Assembly: GCA_964544765.1 (NCBI GenBank)
Contig: CAZJDM010000001.1
Span: 1,851 to 65,850, forward strand
DNA from: an uncultured bacterium
GTDB lineage: Bacteria; Bdellovibrionota_B; Oligoflexia; CAYFLR01
Length of the DNA: 64,000 nucleotides
Reading direction: 5' to 3'
Part shown: one piece after another, positions 10,279 to 51,578 of the stretch
How positions within the stretch are numbered: the stretch's first letter is position 1
How the letters are laid out: each line of letters starts with the position of its first letter
Made by a program: the position numbers and the translations under genes
The notes under the pieces: model-generated
Databases searched by the model: none
What the model was told of the DNA's origin: nothing
The model's input: only the letters and a program-made list of their open reading frames with translations

Positions 10279-11517
10279 TTATCGTAAATTAAAACAATCA
10301 AACACTACTAAAGACAAGTGATCTGAAATATAGCTACCTTTATGGGCAATCATAATTCTTTGATTTTCAAAAGATAAATATCCCTTAATAACCCAGTCTT
10401 CAAATTTCTGGTTAGCTAAAAAATCGATTTCAAAAAAGGTATTTATTTTAATTAAATCAAGCCCTTTTCTAGTACGCAAAGCTGTAAAAACAAACTCCAA
10501 AACAGCTTCTTTTAGATCCCTTTTATCAAATTGATGAATATCTTTAAAAAGATTTTCTCTATCTCCATCAAAACAAGATTCTCCCCACCTTATATATTTA
10601 TTAACATTAGGAACGGTCCGATATCTTGATCCCACTTTATTATTTTTTGTGGTTAGAAAACTGGAGGCACTGGCTCCCAATCCAAGATAGTCATTATAGT
10701 GCCAATAATGTGAGTTATGTTTTGATTCAAATCCCTTAAAAGCATAGTTGGAAATTTCATACTGCTCGTATCCCAAGCTCGTCAATTGTTCATACAAATA
10801 ATGATAGAGTCTTCGCTCATCATCTTCTTTCATAGGTTTAATTGAGCCTTTTTTCACTCGATTACATAAACCGCCACTTTTGCCATACGTCAGACTATAA
10901 AATGAGACATGTTTAATAGGAAAGCTCCGGATTAATAGAATATCTTCTTTTATATCACTTTCTTCCTGACCCGGAATTCCATAAATAAAGTCCAGACTAA
11001 TATTTTCCAGGCTAATGTTTTCTAGAATCTTCAACGCATTCATTACCTGAACTTGACTTTGTTTTCTTCCTAAAATTTTTAACATCTTTTGGTTTCCACT
11101 TTGTACTCCCATACTTATTCTATTTATCCCCATCGCCTTGTATTCAACTGCCTTTTCATATGTTAGATCGGCTGGATTACATTCTATAGTAATCTCACAA
11201 TTTTTACTTACCTTCATTCTTTGATTAATAGCCTTTATGAAATTTTTAATTTGGCAAGCATCCAAAATTGATGGGGATCCACCTCCTAAATAAATCGTTG
11301 TGGGCGAAAATTCGACTCCATAATTTTTTATTACTGTATCTAACTCTATGTTTAATGCTTTCATATATTGATTAATCAAGTAGTCATCATGGTCCTTGTC
11401 CTTAATCACATAAAAATCACAATATAAACATTTTCTATAACAAAAAGGGAGATGTGCATAAACACCTCCAACTTTACCTTGACAAGGATTTGACGCTTTG
11501 ATATCTGATTTTACCAT
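10279..11517 (-). CDS. hemW: radical SAM HemW/HemN-like (oxygen-independent coproporphyrinogen oxidase family / heme chaperone)
   Basis: A CxxxCxxC-type radical SAM cluster motif (CYRKCLYCDFY) and the HemN C-terminal domain. Confidence 0.7.
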   Translation of the reverse strand: MVKSDIKASNPCQGKVGGVYAHLPFCYRKCLYCDFYVIKDKDHDDYLINQYMKALNIELDTVIKNYGVEFSPTTIYLGGGSPSILDACQIKNFIKAINQRMKVSKNCEITIECNPADLTYEKAVEYKAMGINRISMGVQSGNQKMLKILGRKQSQVQVMNALKILENISLENISLDFIYGIPGQEESDIKEDILLIRSFPIKHVSFYSLTYGKSGGLCNRVKKGSIKPMKEDDERRLYHYLYEQLTSLGYEQYEISNYAFKGFESKHNSHYWHYNDYLGLGASASSFLTTKNNKVGSRYRTVPNVNKYIRWGESCFDGDRENLFKDIHQFDKRDLKEAVLEFVFTALRTRKGLDLIKINTFFEIDFLANQKFEDWVIKGYLSFENQRIMIAHKGSYISDHLSLVVFDCFNLR

Positions 11518-16107: not shown

Positions 16108-17238
16108 ATGGCCTATAAACAATTTTTCTATTTTGCAAAAAGGAGAAATTTTTCCATGGAACTCAACAATAACAAGAATGCTGAAGATAACTCCACTGTT
16201 TTACCTAAGATTAATGTAATTATACCAGTATATAATGGAGAGCATACTATACTAAAGACATTAGAGTCGGTCTTCTCTCAAAATTATGATAATTTTGATG
16301 TTACAGTTATCGACGATTCTTCTAATGATCGATCCGTTCAGGTTATTCAAGACTCATCTTTTATTGAAAAAATTACTTTTATTCAAAACACTACTAACCT
16401 TGGGATATCTAAGACTTATAACCTTGGGGTATCAAAAACAGACGGAGAGTTCTTTTGTTTTCTCCATCACGACTGTTATTTGATAGATCCTGACTATCTG
16501 TCTAAAGGAACTAAAGTTCTCGAAGACTTAAAAATAGGAGCCGTTACCGGAAAACCTACTATTCCTTCCATCTCCAAATTATCCCTAGCTGAGAAATTAT
16601 ATACTGTTTTAAATTTTATGGATATTCTTCCTGTAAAAGAACCTAAAGTTGAGCCAGTCACCTTTGCTGAATTTAAAGCCGATTTAATACGTCGTGAAAC
16701 TTTGCAAAGCATTGGTAATTTCCCTGAATTGCAAGAAGTATCTCATTCAGGAGAAGATCAAGATATTTCATCCAAGCTTCGTGATAAAAATTTGACAGTT
16801 GTTCAACATAACGATATGTCTTTTGGCCTAAACTATGGTGGTAATCAAGACTCATTTTTGAAACTTTTTTATAAACAAGCGGTTTTAGCCAAATCCCAAG
16901 CTTTTATTATTTTAACCCACAAACAAAACACTGTTCAAAACTTGACACCCAATCGTAAATTAAGGGCCTTTCATCGTAGCTATCAGATTGGTTTTAGTGC
17001 ATTGATCTTAGTATTATTGATTATCTTTTTAGGAATTTATGTCAAAAACCTATTATTAACCATTTTAGTGGCTTTATTAGGGTTCAGGTTCTGCTTTTAT
17101 GTGTTCTATACTATTCAATACGGGCTATCGGGTTATGCCTTATTCTTTCCGTTGGTAGGTTTCTTTTGTGATCTGACGTACGGGATAAGTTTTTTCTATG
17201 GACTTCTAAATGGAATAATTAAAGGAAAACTCAAGTAG
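16108..17238 (+). CDS. family 2 glycosyltransferase with a C-terminal membrane domain
   Basis: VIIPVYNGEHTILKTLESVFSQNYDNFDVTVIDDSSND is the GT2 (GT-A) signature. The C-terminal ~110 aa are hydrophobic helices. Confidence 0.6.
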   Translation: MAYKQFFYFAKRRNFSMELNNNKNAEDNSTVLPKINVIIPVYNGEHTILKTLESVFSQNYDNFDVTVIDDSSNDRSVQVIQDSSFIEKITFIQNTTNLGISKTYNLGVSKTDGEFFCFLHHDCYLIDPDYLSKGTKVLEDLKIGAVTGKPTIPSISKLSLAEKLYTVLNFMDILPVKEPKVEPVTFAEFKADLIRRETLQSIGNFPELQEVSHSGEDQDISSKLRDKNLTVVQHNDMSFGLNYGGNQDSFLKLFYKQAVLAKSQAFIILTHKQNTVQNLTPNRKLRAFHRSYQIGFSALILVLLIIFLGIYVKNLLLTILVALLGFRFCFYVFYTIQYGLSGYALFFPLVGFFCDLTYGISFFYGLLNGIIKGKLK

Positions 17239-17253
17239 AAACAAGCAATTGTT

Positions 17254-19668
17254 TTAGTATAAATTTTCCCGCCTAGCTCTAACTATAAATGGTATACTCA
17301 ACAATAGTATCATCATTAACAACGATCCTTTATCAGCAGAATTACTCTCCTGAATTGAGCAACTTCCACTATCTGGAGCTTTGCGATTAGCGCTGGTTGG
17401 TGGCTTTGCGGTTACTTTCTTACGGAAAGGTTTATTACTATCACGTAGGCTTTTTGCTTGACGACCTTGTTTTTTAATTCTACTTTGCATTGCTTCTACG
17501 GAACTTCCTGCCGGAACACCTAAAGGATTCCCCTTCTTGCCCCCCTTAGTTCCAGCGACCATATCTCTTGACCTATCTTGGACTAACTTAGGATTTCGTT
17601 TAGGAGCCTTACTTCCTGTTGAGATTCCTCCATTTGCTGAAGTCGAGCTTGAAGCTGAAGAAGTACCTGCACCTGCTTTAGTACCTGCACCTGCTTTAGT
17701 ACCTGCACCTGCTTTAGTACCTGCACCTGCCTTAGTACCTGTGCCTGCCTTAGTACCTGCTCCTGTTCCAGCACCAATTGATCCTGTATTATACTGACTA
17801 TCATAAGTCTTTATCTGTCTCTGAGCTTTTGAACCAATAGTATTAGCTTTACACTTTTGTACAGTCTCTGAATCCCATCCAGGTTGTTTAACACATGGAG
17901 TCAGGGCTACACACTGAAAGGAGAAATTACTACTTGCACTAGGTAAATTAATATCAGGGCAATATTTTTTCTGAATACGACTAACCCCACAAACCGAAGG
18001 AATATTTAACCTTTTCCAAAGGTTGCATTGATACCTAGCTATTTCCTGGGCTATCGCACTTTTTTCTGCCGCTTCTAATGAGGTAAGCACTACTTCTAAA
18101 GCATAATCCGCAAACACCAAAAGGTGTTGTTCGTTTTCCATCAAATTAAACCCCAATCCCATAATGGCACCATCGGTAGTACTGTCTAGTTTTGCAAAAA
18201 GAGAGCCTTTGGCTTGATTACTTCCAGGAATCTGCCTGGAATCATAACCCCCTGTATCTGGGGCAATTGGAATTAAGGCCTTAGCGTCTAAATTATCTTG
18301 ATGGTATATTATAACATTATCCACTAAAGCATTTTGACTATCATGTGAAACATATTTGGCAATATAACCTAATACATACGGTTGAGGTAAGTTGGTTATC
18401 ATTGGAATTAAGGCAACCGGTCCAAATGAAGGCCTGGTTGTTTGCTGTCTGCTATCTAGTAGTATTGCCATTGATTGAAAATTAGGCATCTCTCTTAAAG
18501 TCCAACCAGATGGATCATTTTCACTAAAGATCCCACTAAGTATTGATTTAATTCCCAGTTCCGTAAATCCAACACCTTCTTTAAATACTCCCCTAAGTTT
18601 TTTGCCTTCATAGTTTTCACCTTGTACCTTTGGAGCTAACTCATCTGACATGTTATCAAATATATCTTTAACTTCTTTGGACAATTTTCGATGAATGATA
18701 TATTTATCAGTTAAAAAATAGGATATTTGAGAAAAAGCGGTATAATAATCTTCCAAATCCAATTCTCCAGAAGCAGTTGAAGTACCAGAAGCAGTTGAAG
18801 TACCAGAAGCAGTTGAAGTACCAGAAGCAGTTGGAATACCAGAAGTAGCTGAAACATCAGAAGTAGCTGGAACATTGGTCGAAACCAAATTAGCTTCGGC
18901 TAATGTCCTAATTTGATTGGAATTCACTAAGGCACTAACAGTCGGCCCACTATCACTCTCAATGGCCTCACCCCAAGATGGATAGAGCTCAAAAGGATCA
19001 TTGCCATATAGGTCACCGGATGACGACTGATCTGTTGAATCGTCTGCTGGTTCTTCTGATTCATCTGAATCACTCTCATTACGACCTTCATCACCACCAA
19101 TAGTACTTTCAGAAACATTTGAATCTGAATCCACAGCAAGTGTATTACTATCGTTAACTGAGGCTTGATCGGTTGACTCAATAGCCCACTGATCTACGAA
19201 AGCTATTAAATCTCGATCTTCTATTTGTGCCATAAAAGCTTCTGGATGCTCTCCCACGGTTCCAGAAGTAATATGACCTTCTGCTTTCTCTTTGGCCCAT
19301 AAATAATGCCGGCATACCAAACCGAAATCACCGGTTATTTGATCCTCACCACAACTAACATCCCAAGTCCTCAAGTACCTTATGCAATTTTCACTGCTTA
19401 ATTTTGTTGTATCATTTTCATTAGTACCACAAAAAAGAGCCAAGCCATCAAGATATGCCTGTAATGCTTTTTTCTCCGCCTCAACAAGGGGTTCTCTTGA
19501 AACCACCCAGTTTAAGAAAAGCAAGCCTTTTCTAGCTGATGGTTTATCTGATAGACTTCTAGCACTCGAATCTAAGAATTTTACTTGTGATGTCCCAAGT
19601 CTACATCCCGACACTACCAAAAGACCAGATAATATAAATAATAAACTTATTAATTGTAATATACGCAT
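17254..19668 (-). CDS. large repeat-containing surface lipoprotein
   Basis: Signal peptide plus lipobox LLVVSGC. Acidic S/D/E-rich region. Tandem GTSTAS and KAGAGT hexapeptide repeats. The C-terminal tail CS..KGSLLMMILLLSIPFIVRARREN is a hydrophobic helix followed by basic residues. Confidence 0.55.
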   Translation of the reverse strand: MRILQLISLLFILSGLLVVSGCRLGTSQVKFLDSSARSLSDKPSARKGLLFLNWVVSREPLVEAEKKALQAYLDGLALFCGTNENDTTKLSSENCIRYLRTWDVSCGEDQITGDFGLVCRHYLWAKEKAEGHITSGTVGEHPEAFMAQIEDRDLIAFVDQWAIESTDQASVNDSNTLAVDSDSNVSESTIGGDEGRNESDSDESEEPADDSTDQSSSGDLYGNDPFELYPSWGEAIESDSGPTVSALVNSNQIRTLAEANLVSTNVPATSDVSATSGIPTASGTSTASGTSTASGTSTASGELDLEDYYTAFSQISYFLTDKYIIHRKLSKEVKDIFDNMSDELAPKVQGENYEGKKLRGVFKEGVGFTELGIKSILSGIFSENDPSGWTLREMPNFQSMAILLDSRQQTTRPSFGPVALIPMITNLPQPYVLGYIAKYVSHDSQNALVDNVIIYHQDNLDAKALIPIAPDTGGYDSRQIPGSNQAKGSLFAKLDSTTDGAIMGLGFNLMENEQHLLVFADYALEVVLTSLEAAEKSAIAQEIARYQCNLWKRLNIPSVCGVSRIQKKYCPDINLPSASSNFSFQCVALTPCVKQPGWDSETVQKCKANTIGSKAQRQIKTYDSQYNTGSIGAGTGAGTKAGTGTKAGAGTKAGAGTKAGAGTKAGAGTSSASSSTSANGGISTGSKAPKRNPKLVQDRSRDMVAGTKGGKKGNPLGVPAGSSVEAMQSRIKKQGRQAKSLRDSNKPFRKKVTAKPPTSANRKAPDSGSCSIQESNSADKGSLLMMILLLSIPFIVRARRENLY
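17663..17770. repeat. 18-bp tandem repeat (unit gtacctgcacctgcttta), about 5.5 copies, in-frame within the lipoprotein gene
   Basis: Three perfect copies are followed by progressively degenerate copies. Encodes (KAGAGT)n on the minus strand. Confidence 0.8.
18767..18874. repeat. 18-bp tandem repeat (unit ccagaagcagttgaagta), 3 perfect plus about 3 degenerate copies, in-frame within the same gene
   Basis: Encodes (GTSTAS)n on the minus strand. Confidence 0.8.
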
Positions 19669-19691
19669 ACCCCATCCCCTATAACGGGTGA

Positions 19692-20043: not shown

Positions 20044-20412
20044 ATGAAAAAATTAATCGTGGCCCTGGAATCAAATAGTTCCTTTTTTAAATCAGCTAAA
20101 AAAGAGCTTAAAGATGTTCTTGATAAAGGAAAACGAGGTTCTACTGTTTATAGAATTTCATTTTCTGAGCGCAAAGACTTTAATCGATTTATGGCAAATA
20201 TCCACGTTCTTCAAGTAATTATAAAAGACGCTCCTATATCAATTAATGAGCTAGCAAAAATATTAAACGTTGATCGAAGTGGCATCGTTAGAATATTGAA
20301 GTTCTTTGAAGAATTTGAAATTGTTAAATACGACGAAATAAAGGTCGGCAAAAGAAAACAGAAAAAGCCAATCGTCGATTTTAAGAAAATAGAAATTGAT
20401 TTGGCGTCATGA
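20044..20412 (+). CDS. small winged-helix DNA-binding protein
   Basis: INELAKILNVDRSGIVRILKFFEEFEIV is a MarR/ArsR-like wHTH segment. 122 aa with a basic C-terminus. Confidence 0.4.
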   Translation: MKKLIVALESNSSFFKSAKKELKDVLDKGKRGSTVYRISFSERKDFNRFMANIHVLQVIIKDAPISINELAKILNVDRSGIVRILKFFEEFEIVKYDEIKVGKRKQKKPIVDFKKIEIDLAS

Positions 20413-27361: not shown

Positions 27362-28702
27362 TTAAGAGGCTTTCTTATCTGTTAAAGAAAGATCTAATTG
27401 TTCAACCATGTGATCTATTTGCCTATCAACACTTGAATCAATTACATTCATTTCAGTTTCAATTATAAAATTCGATTTATTGATCCCTGGATCCTTTATC
27501 AATTCCGTTAGTTCCAAATCAGGAAATTTTTCTTTTAAATTGGGAACCAGATTTTGAAAATACTCATAATCATCAGGGTTAATCTTTACCTTGATTCTAT
27601 CTTTTTTGGCAGTCTTTTCTATCACCTCATAAAAAATCTGCTTCAAAATATCTTGATCCAAAGATATCTCTCTATGAATTACCCTCTTAGCTGTTTTTTC
27701 TATGATTAATTTAAAATTTTGTTCTAAAGAAGAGTATACTTTACGCTTAACCTCTTCCAACTCTTGCAACAGTTCTCCTACTTTGGTGAACAAATCATTT
27801 ACCCTAGCTTGAACACTAATAAAACCCTTTTCTTCACCAGACAACCATCCTTGATTAAAACCTTCTTTTTTGGCCGCCTCTATTTCAACCATATCATTGT
27901 CATCTAAATATTTTTTTTGCTTCTCATCTTCAATATCAACAAAACCTTGCTCAATAGATTCAGACTCAAAAATACTTGTTTTCTTTAAATCAGTATCAAC
28001 CGATTCTATTGGTGCCTTTTTTGGTTTTTCAGCGCTTTCCCCCTCCCTCACATCATCAATGTCCTCCTTAGACCTGGTATCAACTGATTTAATATCCGGG
28101 CCATCAAGGTCAACATCCTCAGGTTGGCCCTCATATCCTGTTTTTTTTCCATTCTCTTCGGATTCTTCTTCCAAACCAGAGTTTTTCATGGCCTCATGAA
28201 ACAATTTACTACCCACATCAACTTTTTCCACAGTGCTATCATAATTAAACTTCATATCCTCCATCGAGCGAGTTTTGTCCTCTTTTTTACTACCCCCCTT
28301 TTCACCATCTTGTGTTTTTTCCCGTTCTCCCCCCCCTTCCTCAGCCTCCTCTTCTTCCATTAATACCTGAGCATTTTCATCGTCATCATCTCCTAAATTA
28401 TAAAATCCTTCTCTTCGCCTTTTAATCTCTTGTTCTATATTTTTAACTTCATCAGTAAAGTCCTCTAATTTAATTCGCTTTCCTTCAGAGGAAAATGATT
28501 TCTCACAATACTCAGAAGCGTCTTTAGACAACTTTTTTAGGACTTTTTCTCCATGTTTATTTTTCCTTAATAAGTTACGAAATCGGTTATCAAAAGGAAC
28601 TTCATCAAAAGAATTAATCTCTGAAAAAGAATACTCGTCTACCTTAAATTTATGCTGATCCTTTTTCTTAATAACCATCATGACTTTATGTATCCCTTTC
28701 AT
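27362..28702 (-). CDS. fliH: flagellar assembly protein FliH with a long acidic N-terminal expansion
   Basis: The C-terminal ~150 aa are FliH-like (LEEVKRKVYSSLEQNFKLIIEKTAKRVIHREISLDQD). Position between fliG and fliI. The N-terminal ~280 aa are D/E/K-rich. Confidence 0.6.
   Translation of the reverse strand: MKGIHKVMMVIKKKDQHKFKVDEYSFSEINSFDEVPFDNRFRNLLRKNKHGEKVLKKLSKDASEYCEKSFSSEGKRIKLEDFTDEVKNIEQEIKRRREGFYNLGDDDDENAQVLMEEEEAEEGGGEREKTQDGEKGGSKKEDKTRSMEDMKFNYDSTVEKVDVGSKLFHEAMKNSGLEEESEENGKKTGYEGQPEDVDLDGPDIKSVDTRSKEDIDDVREGESAEKPKKAPIESVDTDLKKTSIFESESIEQGFVDIEDEKQKKYLDDNDMVEIEAAKKEGFNQGWLSGEEKGFISVQARVNDLFTKVGELLQELEEVKRKVYSSLEQNFKLIIEKTAKRVIHREISLDQDILKQIFYEVIEKTAKKDRIKVKINPDDYEYFQNLVPNLKEKFPDLELTELIKDPGINKSNFIIETEMNVIDSSVDRQIDHMVEQLDLSLTDKKAS
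28329..28336. repeat. homopolymeric C8 (G8 on the fliH coding strand)
   Basis: ctcc cccccc ttcc read directly. Encodes EGGGE in FliH. Confidence 0.9.
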
Positions 28703-49353: not shown

Positions 49354-49386
49354 TTTGAGAGTATCCAATTGAATTGTGGAGGTTTT

Positions 49387-50241
49387 ATGGCAAAGATCAT
49401 TTCCATTTCAAATCAGAAAGGCGGCGTTGGCAAAACTACTACAGCGGTTAATTTAGCATCATCCTTAGCAACATCCAATAAAAGAACCCTTTTAATCGAC
49501 CTAGATCCTCAGGCCAACTCATGTAGCGGCCTCGGAGTACGCATACCAGACGGATCACCCCATATTTATAGTGTTTTAATAGGTAAGAAGAAAATAAAAC
49601 AGATAATACTTAAGTCCACCATTAAAGGACTCGACCTAGCCCCATCCAACCCTGATTTGTATGGGGTCGAAGTAGAATTATCCCAAACAATTGCCCGTGA
49701 ATATAAATTAAAAGACGCCCTAGAACCGGTTTTACCCTATTACGATTTCATCCTGATCGATTGTCCTCCAGCACTAGGAATATTAACCATTAATGCTCTA
49801 ACCGCCTCTAACTCGGTATTAATTCCCCTCCAATGTGAATATTATGCCCTAGAAGGACTTAGTAATTTACTAAATACATTTAAACTGGTACAACGCATTA
49901 ATTCTGACCTTTTTCTCGAAGGTATTTTATTTACTATGTACGACAAACGAAACAACATTTGTAATCAGGTTGTTAAAGAAGTTTCTGCACGCTTTAAAAA
50001 TTATATTTTTTCCACCATAATTCCTCGCAATGTAAAGCTATCTGAAGCTCCGAGCCATGAACAACCTATTTTGTTATATGATTATAATTCCTCAGGTTGT
50101 AAAGCTTACTTAAAACTATCTAGAGAAATAATCAGAAAAAATCTGCAACAAAAACAATCTGTGGTTACCACTAAATCAATTCCTAATAAGGTTATTAATT
50201 ATAATAGCAAGAATTCATCAATTTCAGGGAGGGGATTATGA
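49387..50241 (+). CDS. parA: chromosome partitioning ATPase ParA (Soj)
   Basis: MAKIISISNQKGGVGKTT is the deviant Walker A. The start is taken at the RBS-preceded ATG rather than the ORF-track 49369. Confidence 0.85.
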   Translation: MAKIISISNQKGGVGKTTTAVNLASSLATSNKRTLLIDLDPQANSCSGLGVRIPDGSPHIYSVLIGKKKIKQIILKSTIKGLDLAPSNPDLYGVEVELSQTIAREYKLKDALEPVLPYYDFILIDCPPALGILTINALTASNSVLIPLQCEYYALEGLSNLLNTFKLVQRINSDLFLEGILFTMYDKRNNICNQVVKEVSARFKNYIFSTIIPRNVKLSEAPSHEQPILLYDYNSSGCKAYLKLSREIIRKNLQQKQSVVTTKSIPNKVINYNSKNSSISGRGL

Positions 50242-51149
50242 AAAAACGATCTGCCTTAGGAAATGGGGTTAATTCCCTTTTTTCTAGCGATGTTGATTTA
50301 GACAAAGGGCCCTCAGTGCAGGCTCCAGTTACCAAATCTACTAAAACCCCAGCTTCCGTGTTTCAAGCTCCAATTCATAAAATACAACCAAGTCTCTCTC
50401 AACCTAGAAAGCTTTTTCAAGATGAAGATTTAGAAGAGCTATCTAAATCCATTAAGGAGGTGGGAATTATCCAACCCCTTATAGTTAAAATGGATGAAAA
50501 AGACGATTCTTTTATGATTGTCGCTGGTGAACGTAGGTGGAGAGCTGCTCAGAAGGCCGGATTACACGAAGTACCAATAATTTTACGGGAATGCGACAAT
50601 AAAGACATGCTAGAGATAGCATTAATTGAAAACATTCAAAGGCAAGATCTCAACGTTATTGAAGAAGCTGAAGCTTATCAAATGCTACAAATAAAATATA
50701 ACCTCAATCAAGAAGATATCTCTAAAAAGGTTGGAAAAGACCGTACCACCATCACCAATACCTTGCGAATCCTAAAACTTCCTCCCGAAATTCAAAGAGA
50801 TATTATTGATGAAACCTTATCTATGGGTCATGCCCGAGCTCTTTTAGCTCTCGAAAATAAAGACCTACAACTTGAAGTCCGTAATTTAATTAAAATAAAG
50901 GACTTGAATGTAAGACAAACGGAACAAATAATCCGAAAATTAAAACAAAAAAAAGACCAAAAAAACACCCTAAGCAGGGTTTATCAGGAAAATCCCAACC
51001 TACTTTTTTTGTCTGAATCACTACAAAAATATTTTGGGACCAAAGTCACAATTAAAGGACGTGGAAAAAAGGGAAAAATTGAGATATCCTATCATTCTTT
51101 CGATGACCTCGAAAGAATTTTAGATTTAATGAAGAGCAAAAATGCTTAA
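50238..51149 (+). CDS. parB: chromosome partitioning protein ParB (Spo0J)
   Basis: GLGRG-like N-terminus (ALGNGVNSLF), the ParB box, and HTH (KKVGKDRTTITNTLRILKLPPEIQ). Confidence 0.85.
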   Translation: MKKRSALGNGVNSLFSSDVDLDKGPSVQAPVTKSTKTPASVFQAPIHKIQPSLSQPRKLFQDEDLEELSKSIKEVGIIQPLIVKMDEKDDSFMIVAGERRWRAAQKAGLHEVPIILRECDNKDMLEIALIENIQRQDLNVIEEAEAYQMLQIKYNLNQEDISKKVGKDRTTITNTLRILKLPPEIQRDIIDETLSMGHARALLALENKDLQLEVRNLIKIKDLNVRQTEQIIRKLKQKKDQKNTLSRVYQENPNLLFLSESLQKYFGTKVTIKGRGKKGKIEISYHSFDDLERILDLMKSKNA

Positions 51150-51173
51150 TAATCAATTATTAGGAGTTTTTTA

Positions 51174-51578
51174 ATGAAAAATAAATCAAATCAAATGCCC
51201 ACTTATAAGGAACAATCCGCTAATCAGGGTAAACGTGAACTAAAAGCTTTTTTGGAAAAAGGGAGTGAATTTGAAGGTAAATTGATTTTTGAAGGAACAG
51301 TTCGTTTAAATGGCAAATTTACCGGTGAAATAGTCACGAATGATGTTTTAATTATAGGTGAAGATGCTGAGATTAACGCCAATATTGATGCTGGCAATAT
51401 TATTTCAAGTGGAAAAGTAAATGGGAACATTATTACCCGAGAAAAGTTAGAATTATTAAGTCCCGGTGTATTAGTAGGCAATGTTGAGACACCATGTCTA
51501 AATATCCAAGAAGGGGTAATTTTTGATGGTAATTGTAAAATGACTCCTCCCAAAAATTCCTCTCCTACCAAGATATAA
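51174..51578 (+). CDS. bactofilin (DUF583 polymer-forming cytoskeletal protein)
   Basis: Repeated beta-helical G-x-V/I-x-G-N/D hexad pattern throughout the 134 aa. Confidence 0.7.
   Translation: MKNKSNQMPTYKEQSANQGKRELKAFLEKGSEFEGKLIFEGTVRLNGKFTGEIVTNDVLIIGEDAEINANIDAGNIISSGKVNGNIITREKLELLSPGVLVGNVETPCLNIQEGVIFDGNCKMTPPKNSSPTKI

Follow-up and report, generated by a model that had tools for sequence, protein, structure and literature searches.

In this study, a 64,000-nucleotide stretch of DNA from an uncultured bacterium (hereafter the window) was analysed with emphasis on the gene at 17254..19668, whose 804-amino acid (aa) product is a lipoprotein of an unannotated family known from metagenomes only. 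The protein ends in a Cys-containing motif, a hydrophobic helix and a basic tip, and this tail is retained in every one of the ten family tails compared. It is best filed as a candidate variant of the cysteine-type C-terminal sorting/anchoring signals, and with about even confidence we propose that it is a new tripartite signal of that type, in which the Cys would be modified and the helix removed by an unlinked intramembrane protease.

Conservation of the C-terminal tail

The C-terminus of the protein reads ...SGSCSIQESNSADK-GSLLMMILLLSIPFIV-RARRENLY, or, with the motif and spacer spelled out, SG-S-C770-S-I-QESNSADK-GSLLMMILLLSIPFIV-RARRENLY. The generic tripartite layout described by Haft (signature motif, transmembrane segment and basic cluster at the extreme C-terminus) is readily recognised in it, as is the MYXO-CTERM-style arrangement of an invariant Cys in a C-terminal signature motif followed by a helix and an Arg cluster. 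The component parts are as follows:

17353..17367 (-): signature motif G768-S-C770-S-I772; family consensus [GSA]-C-[ST]-[IV], from alignment A3 of ten tails
17329..17352 (-): polar spacer Q773-K780 (4-13 residues in relatives)
17281..17328 (-): hydrophobic helix G781-V796 with Pro793, from hydropathy
17254..17280 (-): basic end RARRENLY and the stop codon; 2-6 K/R residues follow the helix in 10/10 tails

A helix at residues 781-803 is predicted by AlphaFold2, and among the open reading frames (ORFs) of the window this gene alone has a real hydrophobic and basic C-terminal tail.

The ten tails derive from nine proteins and one locus of a metagenome-assembled genome (MAG), L010, in which the tail is split off by a frameshift. 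Alignment A3 shows an invariant Cys followed by Ser and Ile that are at least 90% conserved, while the preceding residue is G, S or A in all ten cases. Between the motif and the uncharged stretch lies a polar spacer of 4-13 residues; the hydrophobic core comprises 14-18 residues, and the uncharged stretch contains Pro or Gly in eight of the ten tails, the exceptions being P0001 and P0003. The conserved C-terminal module is about 35-45 residues long, and in the six unfused full-length members the Cys is located 34-46 residues from the C-terminus. The distance between the central domain and the Cys, on the other hand, ranges from 67 to 365 residues, the intervening linkers being of low complexity and unalignable. 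Since the tail is kept beside such variable linkers, and since the motif is written in differing codons among seven loci, selection on the tail itself is indicated. Together with the two or three tail-bearing paralogs that these organisms appear to carry (see below), the tail sequences indicate a selected module and not a chance transmembrane segment, thereby substantiating and extending to the family the layout of Cys motif, hydrophobic helix and Arg-rich end that had been proposed for the window protein in the original prediction.

Relatives and paralogs

An exhaustive HMMER search of 1.84 billion cluster representatives returned eight true relatives (E 1e-31 to 2e-13, 28-38% identity), all derived from metagenomes or MAGs and none of them named, with the similarity confined to residues 296-613. 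A scan of a genome collection with alignment A2 identified a single locus, L010, in the species-representative MAG GCA_964343805.1, and a scan of a metagenome collection, which evidently lacks these contigs, identified none. Searches by word index returned nothing for the full protein, for tail profile A3 or for the central domain and are uninformative: low-complexity words saturated the candidate list of the full-protein query, which missed even itself, and the tail profile is too short to reach E<=10 among 5.8 billion proteins.

The family members were sorted into types. Type A comprises the window gene and its syntenic orthologs P0005 (on L008, GC 43%) and L010 (GC 40%). Type B comprises P0004/L007 and P0007/L009, located between cysS and a radical SAM/SPASM gene that lies tail-to-tail with them (L007 12618-14048 (-) and L009 12750-14216 (-)). 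Type C is P0014 (L011), while type D consists of P0001, P0003 and P0008/L012. The C-terminal linkers of type B contain an additional conserved C...NPKCK motif. In L010 (8705-10868) the Cys tail is out of frame with the rest of the gene owing to a frameshift in the low-complexity basic linker, and masked Ns occur in the record as well; this is probably an assembly error in a repetitive stretch. On L015 (6644-8026) the P0002 gene overlaps the start of an unannotated 460-aa lipoprotein gene (LIVISC lipobox) and is preceded by a gene for a tetratricopeptide repeat (TPR) protein, and TPR-like genes are likewise found beside the loci of types A and C.

Two of the paralogs, L010 (CAYFLR010000019) and L012 (CAYFLR010000051), occur in the single bin GCA_964343805.1. 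The samples that yielded P0004 (L007, GC 33.9%) and P0014 (L011, GC 34.1%) also contain contigs with 100% identity to the window, and the contigs of P0005 and P0001 come from one sample with coverages of 22.5 and 22.7. Each of these genomes thus seems to have two or three paralogs with the tail, all from one family, with co-residence seen at bin level in GCA_964343805.1 and presumed for the window organism and for that of P0005 and P0001. The original prediction had held that the tail would be a plain transmembrane anchor if no other protein shared it and no sorting enzyme was present; other proteins ending in this tail were indeed found, but they are all homologs or paralogs of one family.

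Fused family members and orientation of the tail

In type D (P0001, P0003 and P0008/L012) the reading frame runs on from the basic cluster of the tail into a lipobox signal and a domain of ~190 residues, the cluster thereby supplying the n-region for this second lipoprotein signal (e.g. ...KHKEKINRLWVAPLLFVLLPSC...). The fused genes include P0001 (L013 2032-5127), which occurs on 4 contigs from two assembly sources, and P0008 with its upstream ORF (L012 8712-11227). Because the tail continues in frame into a second lipoprotein signal, its helix runs from periplasm to cytoplasm (out-to-in). Type D may represent a natural two-lipoprotein polyprotein. Its internal tail parallels the internal MYXO-CTERM of MXAN_5598, which arose from gene fusion (PMC11980579). 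Homologs of the type D downstream domain were found neither in the window nor at the other loci.

Type D members further possess an insert between the N-terminal and central domains with a metzincin-like zinc-binding motif (HExxHxxGxxH), which reads HEAMHNIGFWH, HESMHILGFSH and HEMLHVANFDH in P0001, P0003 and L012 8712-9773, respectively, and which the window protein lacks.

Comparison with known C-terminal sorting signals

Concerning the established classes, the only sorting model to match at all was JDVT-CTERM (NF033191), which scored 14.1 bits with the window tail (over profile positions 3-34 of 35) and 14.4 bits with that of P0008 against a cutoff of 27; it thus matched two of nine tails, while those of six other relatives gave no match. 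JDVT-CTERM is defined by one Cys, ~9 residues, a near-invariant Asp-Pro and a Leu-rich helix; there is about one client per genome, and the CPBP protease MrtJ is adjacent in 16/17 cases (bioRxiv 10.1101/2023.06.07.544157). The tail described here resembles JDVT-CTERM/MrtJ (NF033191/NF033192) in its invariant Cys, a spacer of ~9 residues, a helix-perturbing Pro near or in the helix, the basic end and the small number of clients per genome. It differs in its sub-cutoff score, in the absence from all relatives of the Asp-Pro expected about nine residues past the Cys (the window protein has D779-K780, hence DK and not DP) and in lacking an adjacent CPBP gene, while its clients are lipobox-bearing paralogs of one family in a lineage outside the Pseudomonadota listed for JDVT-CTERM.

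MYXO-CTERM (TIGR03901) gave no match at E<=10 with the full protein or with nine isolated tails. That class is characterised by GCGC, a helix without Pro or charge and many unrelated clients, and Synerg-CTERM by the lack of a spacer and an invariant Pro in the helix (bioRxiv 10.1101/2023.06.07.544157). For MrtX, it was shown experimentally that cleavage of TraA requires the Cys, and the working model is one of lipidation, cleavage and then surface delivery dependent on the type II secretion system (PMC11980579). With MYXO-CTERM/MrtX the present tail shares the tripartite form, an invariant Cys after Gly and a Sec-exported protein that the tail helix would hold in the inner membrane, and the path proposed below would have Cys lipidation, intramembrane cleavage and surface delivery in common with it; MYXO-CTERM differs in its GCGC motif, in having essentially no spacer, in its 3-73 unrelated proteins per genome and in its restriction to Myxococcota. 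The invariant Cys after a Ser/Gly-rich stretch and the conserved Pro in the helix recall Synerg-CTERM/MrtS (TIGR04564), which differs in lacking a spacer between Cys and helix, in giving no hidden Markov model (HMM) match and in being confined to Synergistota.

GlyGly-CTERM/rhombosortase and PEP-CTERM/exosortase resemble our tail in their general layout, with exported proteins that end in a motif, a helix and a basic cluster. For the former, no GG at the helix start, no HMM match and no rhomboid-family gene in the window or flanks were found; for the latter, there was no PEP motif and no HMM match, and neither the window nor any flank contained an exosortase Pfam family. The Lgt/Lsp lipoprotein pathway, of which the protein has a standard lipobox at its N-terminus, offers a further parallel in that the tail Cys, like that of a lipobox with its position -1, is preceded by G, S or A; the tail motif nevertheless lacks the hydrophobic residues at -3/-2 and lies upstream of its helix, giving a topology inverted relative to a signal peptide. 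Judged by sequence, the tail is not a member of MYXO-, JDVT-, GlyGly- or PEP-CTERM, and its likeness to them would be functional at best. The membership in the MYXO-, GlyGly- or PEP-CTERM classes that had been suggested for it was therefore not borne out, the nearest model being JDVT-CTERM with 14 of the 27 bits needed.

Proposed mechanism and alternative explanations

Under the mechanism that we propose, the tail helix would serve after Sec export as a stop-transfer anchor that leaves the motif on the periplasmic side and the basic tip on the cytoplasmic side. The tail would then behave like the cysteine-type signals MYXO-CTERM, JDVT-CTERM and Synerg-CTERM: the invariant unpaired Cys would be modified, most likely by lipidation, and an intramembrane protease encoded elsewhere would cut off the helix, which would free the N-terminally lipid-anchored protein to leave the inner membrane. 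The most likely candidate for this protease would be a CPBP/Rce1-like enzyme of the 'myxosortase' type, given the likeness of C-[S/T]-[I/V]-x to the eukaryotic and archaeal CaaX box on which Rce1, the prototype of the CPBP family, acts. That box is cytosolic, situated at the very C-terminus and prenylated, whereas the motif of the tail would be periplasmic and is 34-46 residues removed from the C-terminus. Support for the proposal comes from the tripartite design, which is common to the known cysteine-type signals, and from the distribution of the 12 Cys residues of the protein, of which one is the lipobox C22, four are in the N-terminal domain and six are at the end of the central domain, leaving C770 as the odd Cys without an obvious partner. 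The conservation of the tail, the apparent presence of several paralogs with it per organism, the out-to-in helix of type D, the need of MrtX for the Cys and the JDVT-CTERM match speak for it as well.

Several observations weigh against this proposal. A pattern scan of the window and 12 loci (~330 kb) found the tail solely on this family and never on an unrelated protein, while the known sorting signals are defined by their sharing among unrelated clients. No gene for a CPBP protease (PF02517), a rhomboid or rhombosortase, an exosortase or archaeosortase, or a sortase was detected with Pfam in the 64-kb window, and the same enzyme classes were not found within 10 kb of eight distinct family loci, so that the regions searched yielded none of the sorting enzymes for which the original prediction had suggested looking. 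This absence counts since low-client systems such as JDVT-CTERM usually have their enzyme adjacent. A hydropathy screen for unannotated multi-pass proteins likewise picked up nothing beyond FecCD permeases, CHASE2 and MASE3 kinases and a Wzy-like protein, and no unannotated multi-pass protein adjoined any of the eight loci. Furthermore, neither the full protein nor the isolated tails reached the threshold of any curated C-terminal sorting model, and most known classes have a shorter and less variable polar spacer. Cleavage, Cys modification and the enzyme class are, moreover, purely inferential, and the resemblance of C-[S/T]-[I/V]-x to CaaX (with an aliphatic a2, and CSIM in P0006 and P0014) is a lead.

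The strongest competitor, which we regard as possible if less than probable, is a permanent double anchor in which an N-terminal lipid and an unremoved C-terminal helix would both sit in the inner membrane or would bridge the outer and inner membranes, the juxtamembrane Cys serving in an intermolecular disulfide, in metal binding or in partner binding. It would agree with the want of a processing enzyme near any member, with a tail restricted to one protein family (as expected of a family-specific anchor), with the polar spacer that separates motif and helix, with the sub-cutoff scores for all sorting models, and with disordered linkers of ~175 and 155 residues that could span the periplasm. 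It leaves unexplained why a strict [GSA]-C-[ST]-[IV], the Pro/Gly of the helix and the 34-46 residue distance are preserved across paralogs of ~28% identity, and the hydrophobic cores are short (14-18 residues) for such a role. In addition, nine of ten members (counting L012 and not P0008) have no Asp at position +2 past the lipobox Cys. By the Lol rule of E. coli this predicts outer-membrane targeting, with which a retained inner-membrane helix would be incompatible, with the proviso that the rule may not apply to this lineage. That the tail is instead the remnant of a polyprotein hairpin, i.e. the first half of a membrane hairpin that once preceded a lost downstream lipoprotein and is left over as a stop-transfer segment, is very improbable: the in-frame continuation of P0001, P0003 and P0008/L012 into a second lipobox signal and a ~190-residue domain is what such an origin would predict, but seven of ten members end right past the basic cluster, the Cys motif is conserved equally in the unfused types A, B and C and in type D, and the downstream domain is without homologs in the window and at the other loci. 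Fusion of a tail to a downstream gene is, besides, known as an occasional accident (MXAN_5598, PMC11980579).

More improbable still is a role of the tail Cys as the substrate of a thioether-forming radical SAM/SPASM maturase, which would make it a crosslink site and not a sorting determinant. This idea draws on the tail-to-tail placement of type B with a PapB/SCIFF/QhpD-like enzyme in two genomes of differing GC and on the presence of C-x-x-x-E in the window tail. Since the whole type B neighbourhood is syntenic, that adjacency is weak evidence; the enzyme, nearest to PapB, SCIFF and QhpD at 262 and 247 bits, falls under the 340-bit cutoff and below every family cutoff, no precursor-peptide gene is visible near it, and the type B tails themselves (CSISQ and CSISS) lack C-x3-D/E. 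No such enzyme adjoins the gene studied here: the radical SAM gene of the window, at 10279-11517, is HemW (252 bits). As for a fortuitous hydrophobic C-terminus with no specific role, the absence of a database family and an AT-rich genome that favours hydrophobic and basic codons would be compatible with it, but ten of ten tails are conserved beside fully diverged linkers and the tail is unique among the real ORFs of the window; this explanation is hardly credible and can be considered effectively refuted.

Returning to a processed tail, an extended version can be formulated that we deem rather unlikely as a whole. The [G/S/A]-C-[S/T]-[I/V] tail would define a new cysteine-type class always paired with an N-terminal lipobox, in which Cys modification and cleavage by a periplasm-facing CPBP-like protease that recognises the CaaX-like motif would leave both ends lipid-anchored and joined by repeat-tuned spacers, or else the helix would be retained and the protein would form a tether between inner and outer membranes; in type D the tail would double as the start of the second lipoprotein signal, yielding a natural lipoprotein polyprotein.

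The cysteine-type signals MYXO-, JDVT-, Synerg- and CGP-CTERM were tied to CPBP 'myxosortases' only recently, and to our knowledge the chemistry at their invariant Cys is still unknown. If the tail is processed, a further divergent example would help to define what the processing machinery reads, and it would be a useful one given its clean C-[S/T]-[I/V] motif, its tolerance of a variable spacer, its helix Pro and its obligatory pairing with an N-terminal lipid anchor. In that case such proteins would moreover be naturally doubly anchored substrates. Without processing, the family documents an unusual class of envelope protein, held by a lipid at one end and by a helix at the other. The practical impact is modest, as the family has no annotation in Pfam or NCBIfam and is restricted to a little-known uncultured lineage.

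Gene, N-terminal signal and domain layout

The remaining features of the gene are listed below:

17254..19668 (-): whole gene, 804-aa lipoprotein of an unannotated metagenome-only family (ORF listing, ATG start)
19675..19680 (-): Shine-Dalgarno-like AGGGGA, 6 nt upstream of the ATG (direct sequence reading)
19603..19668 (-): lipoprotein signal peptide, residues 1-22, lipobox VVSG-C22 (PS51257-like pattern)
19279..19602 (-): N-terminal domain, residues 23-130, strand motif AR.G.LFLNW and helical bundle with 4 Cys (alignment A1, AlphaFold2)
18751..19278 (-): disordered acidic S/T/D/E-rich linker, residues 131-306 (composition; predicted local distance difference test score, pLDDT, ~25; unalignable between relatives)
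18767..18875 (-): tandem array 1, 18-bp, in-frame, TSTASG x3 and three degenerate copies (Tandem Repeats Finder, TRF, score 146; codon register)
17833..18750 (-): conserved central domain, residues 307-612, beta-rich part and 4-helix subdomain with 6 Cys (alignment, AlphaFold2)
17371..17832 (-): disordered basic linker rich in K/R and G/A/T/S, residues 613-766 (19% K/R vs 4% D/E; pLDDT ~29)
17662..17765 (-): tandem array 2, 18-bp, in-frame, GAGTKA x3 perfect and degenerate flanking copies (TRF score 173; codon register)

The N-terminus, MRILQLISLLFILSGLLVVSGC, has R2 in its n-region and the segment ILSGLLVVSGC ending at C22, and it passes the PROSITE PS51257-style lipobox pattern, for which the n-region had to be positive, the h-region hydrophobic and [LVI][ASTVI][GAS]C located within residues 15-35. 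In alignment A1, C22 lines up with a hydrophobic segment plus Cys in all full-length relatives, and AlphaFold2 predicts a helix at residues 2-19 of the signal peptide. The ATG-initiated ORF and the lipobox pattern therefore both agree with the 804-aa product with a lipoprotein signal that had been predicted at the outset. The whole protein matched no Pfam or NCBIfam family (zero matches in NCBIfam), a sub-threshold CD1107-like match being rejected as caused by the acidic tract. The organism is diderm, since the window encodes OmpA and an outer-membrane beta-barrel protein, and the product of the gene is best explained as an envelope lipoprotein that belongs, in this uncultured diderm, to a small family without annotation. 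Scans of the 64-kb window for Rfam families and tRNAs gave no matches, and a promoter/terminator scan gave no more sites than shuffled sequence.

In the full-length AlphaFold2 model the N-terminal domain consists of a strand (residues 49-57) and helices (61-129) with a pLDDT of 56-77. The central domain was modelled with a pLDDT of 73.9 and a predicted template modelling score (pTM) of 0.82, its Cys-rich 4-helix subdomain being confident. We do not call it a trypsin-like serine protease of the PA clan (a double beta-barrel with a His/Asp/Ser triad), as the candidate residues H325, Asp and S489 are not invariant and the Asp-to-Ser distance of ~38 residues is too short for that clan.

Linkers and repeat arrays

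The linker that follows the N-terminal domain contains 26 D/E versus 2 K/R in residues 151-250, in keeping with the acidic S/D/E-rich tract noted in the original prediction. At the DNA level array 1 opens with three degenerate copies, followed by three of which two are perfect and one has a single mismatch, while array 2 has 5.8 copies with 94% matches according to TRF. These are the sole arrays scoring at least 60 within the window, and TRF and the codon register concur with the earlier description of two in-frame 18-bp arrays whose perfect copies decay into degenerate ones. In the ortholog P0005 both linkers have arrays at the corresponding positions, but these are unrelated, with units of 24 bp and 15 bp, and L010 has none. 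It follows that these fast-evolving arrays arise and turn over independently, within spacers selected for disorder and charge and not for sequence. The repeat-bearing linkers would serve as flexible spacers of variable length.

The variation in repeat number that had been anticipated was not seen: the exact 804-aa protein is present on 4 contigs, and the gene is 100% identical at nucleotide level on L001 and L002, the other contigs that were readable; as exact-match look-ups cannot find repeat variants, the absence of copy-number variation is weak evidence. The sole mismatch between the window (28290-28346) and L001 (1314-1379) lies in a FliH-like gene and involves Ns and a poly-C tract in L001. 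It was rejected as an indel polymorphism in favour of an N/poly-C scaffolding artefact.

Genomic neighbourhood

The gene is located after a flagellar fliG...flgD-flgE cluster and upstream of mutS, tail-to-tail with a gene for a membrane glycosyltransferase of family 2 (GT2) with C-terminal membrane segments (16108-17238 (+) in the window; L008 12204-13259 and L010 10877-11929 in the orthologs). At all three type A loci, whose genomes have 34-43% GC, this GT2 gene is convergent with the lipoprotein gene and ends within about 10-50 nt of its stop codon. A relation to glycosylation of the Ser/Thr-rich linkers is conceivable, but the GT2 matches obtained were generic only; a link to S-glycosylation was rejected, since the SunS match (E 2e-4) covers the generic GT2 domain only.

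Between flgE and the lipoprotein gene lies a small winged-helix (HVO_A0114/MarR-like) gene (20044-20412 (+)), which is absent from L008. Further along the window, a bactofilin gene (~49369-51578 (+)) directly follows parA-parB downstream of gidA/mnmG, and the window is therefore placed near the chromosome origin region.

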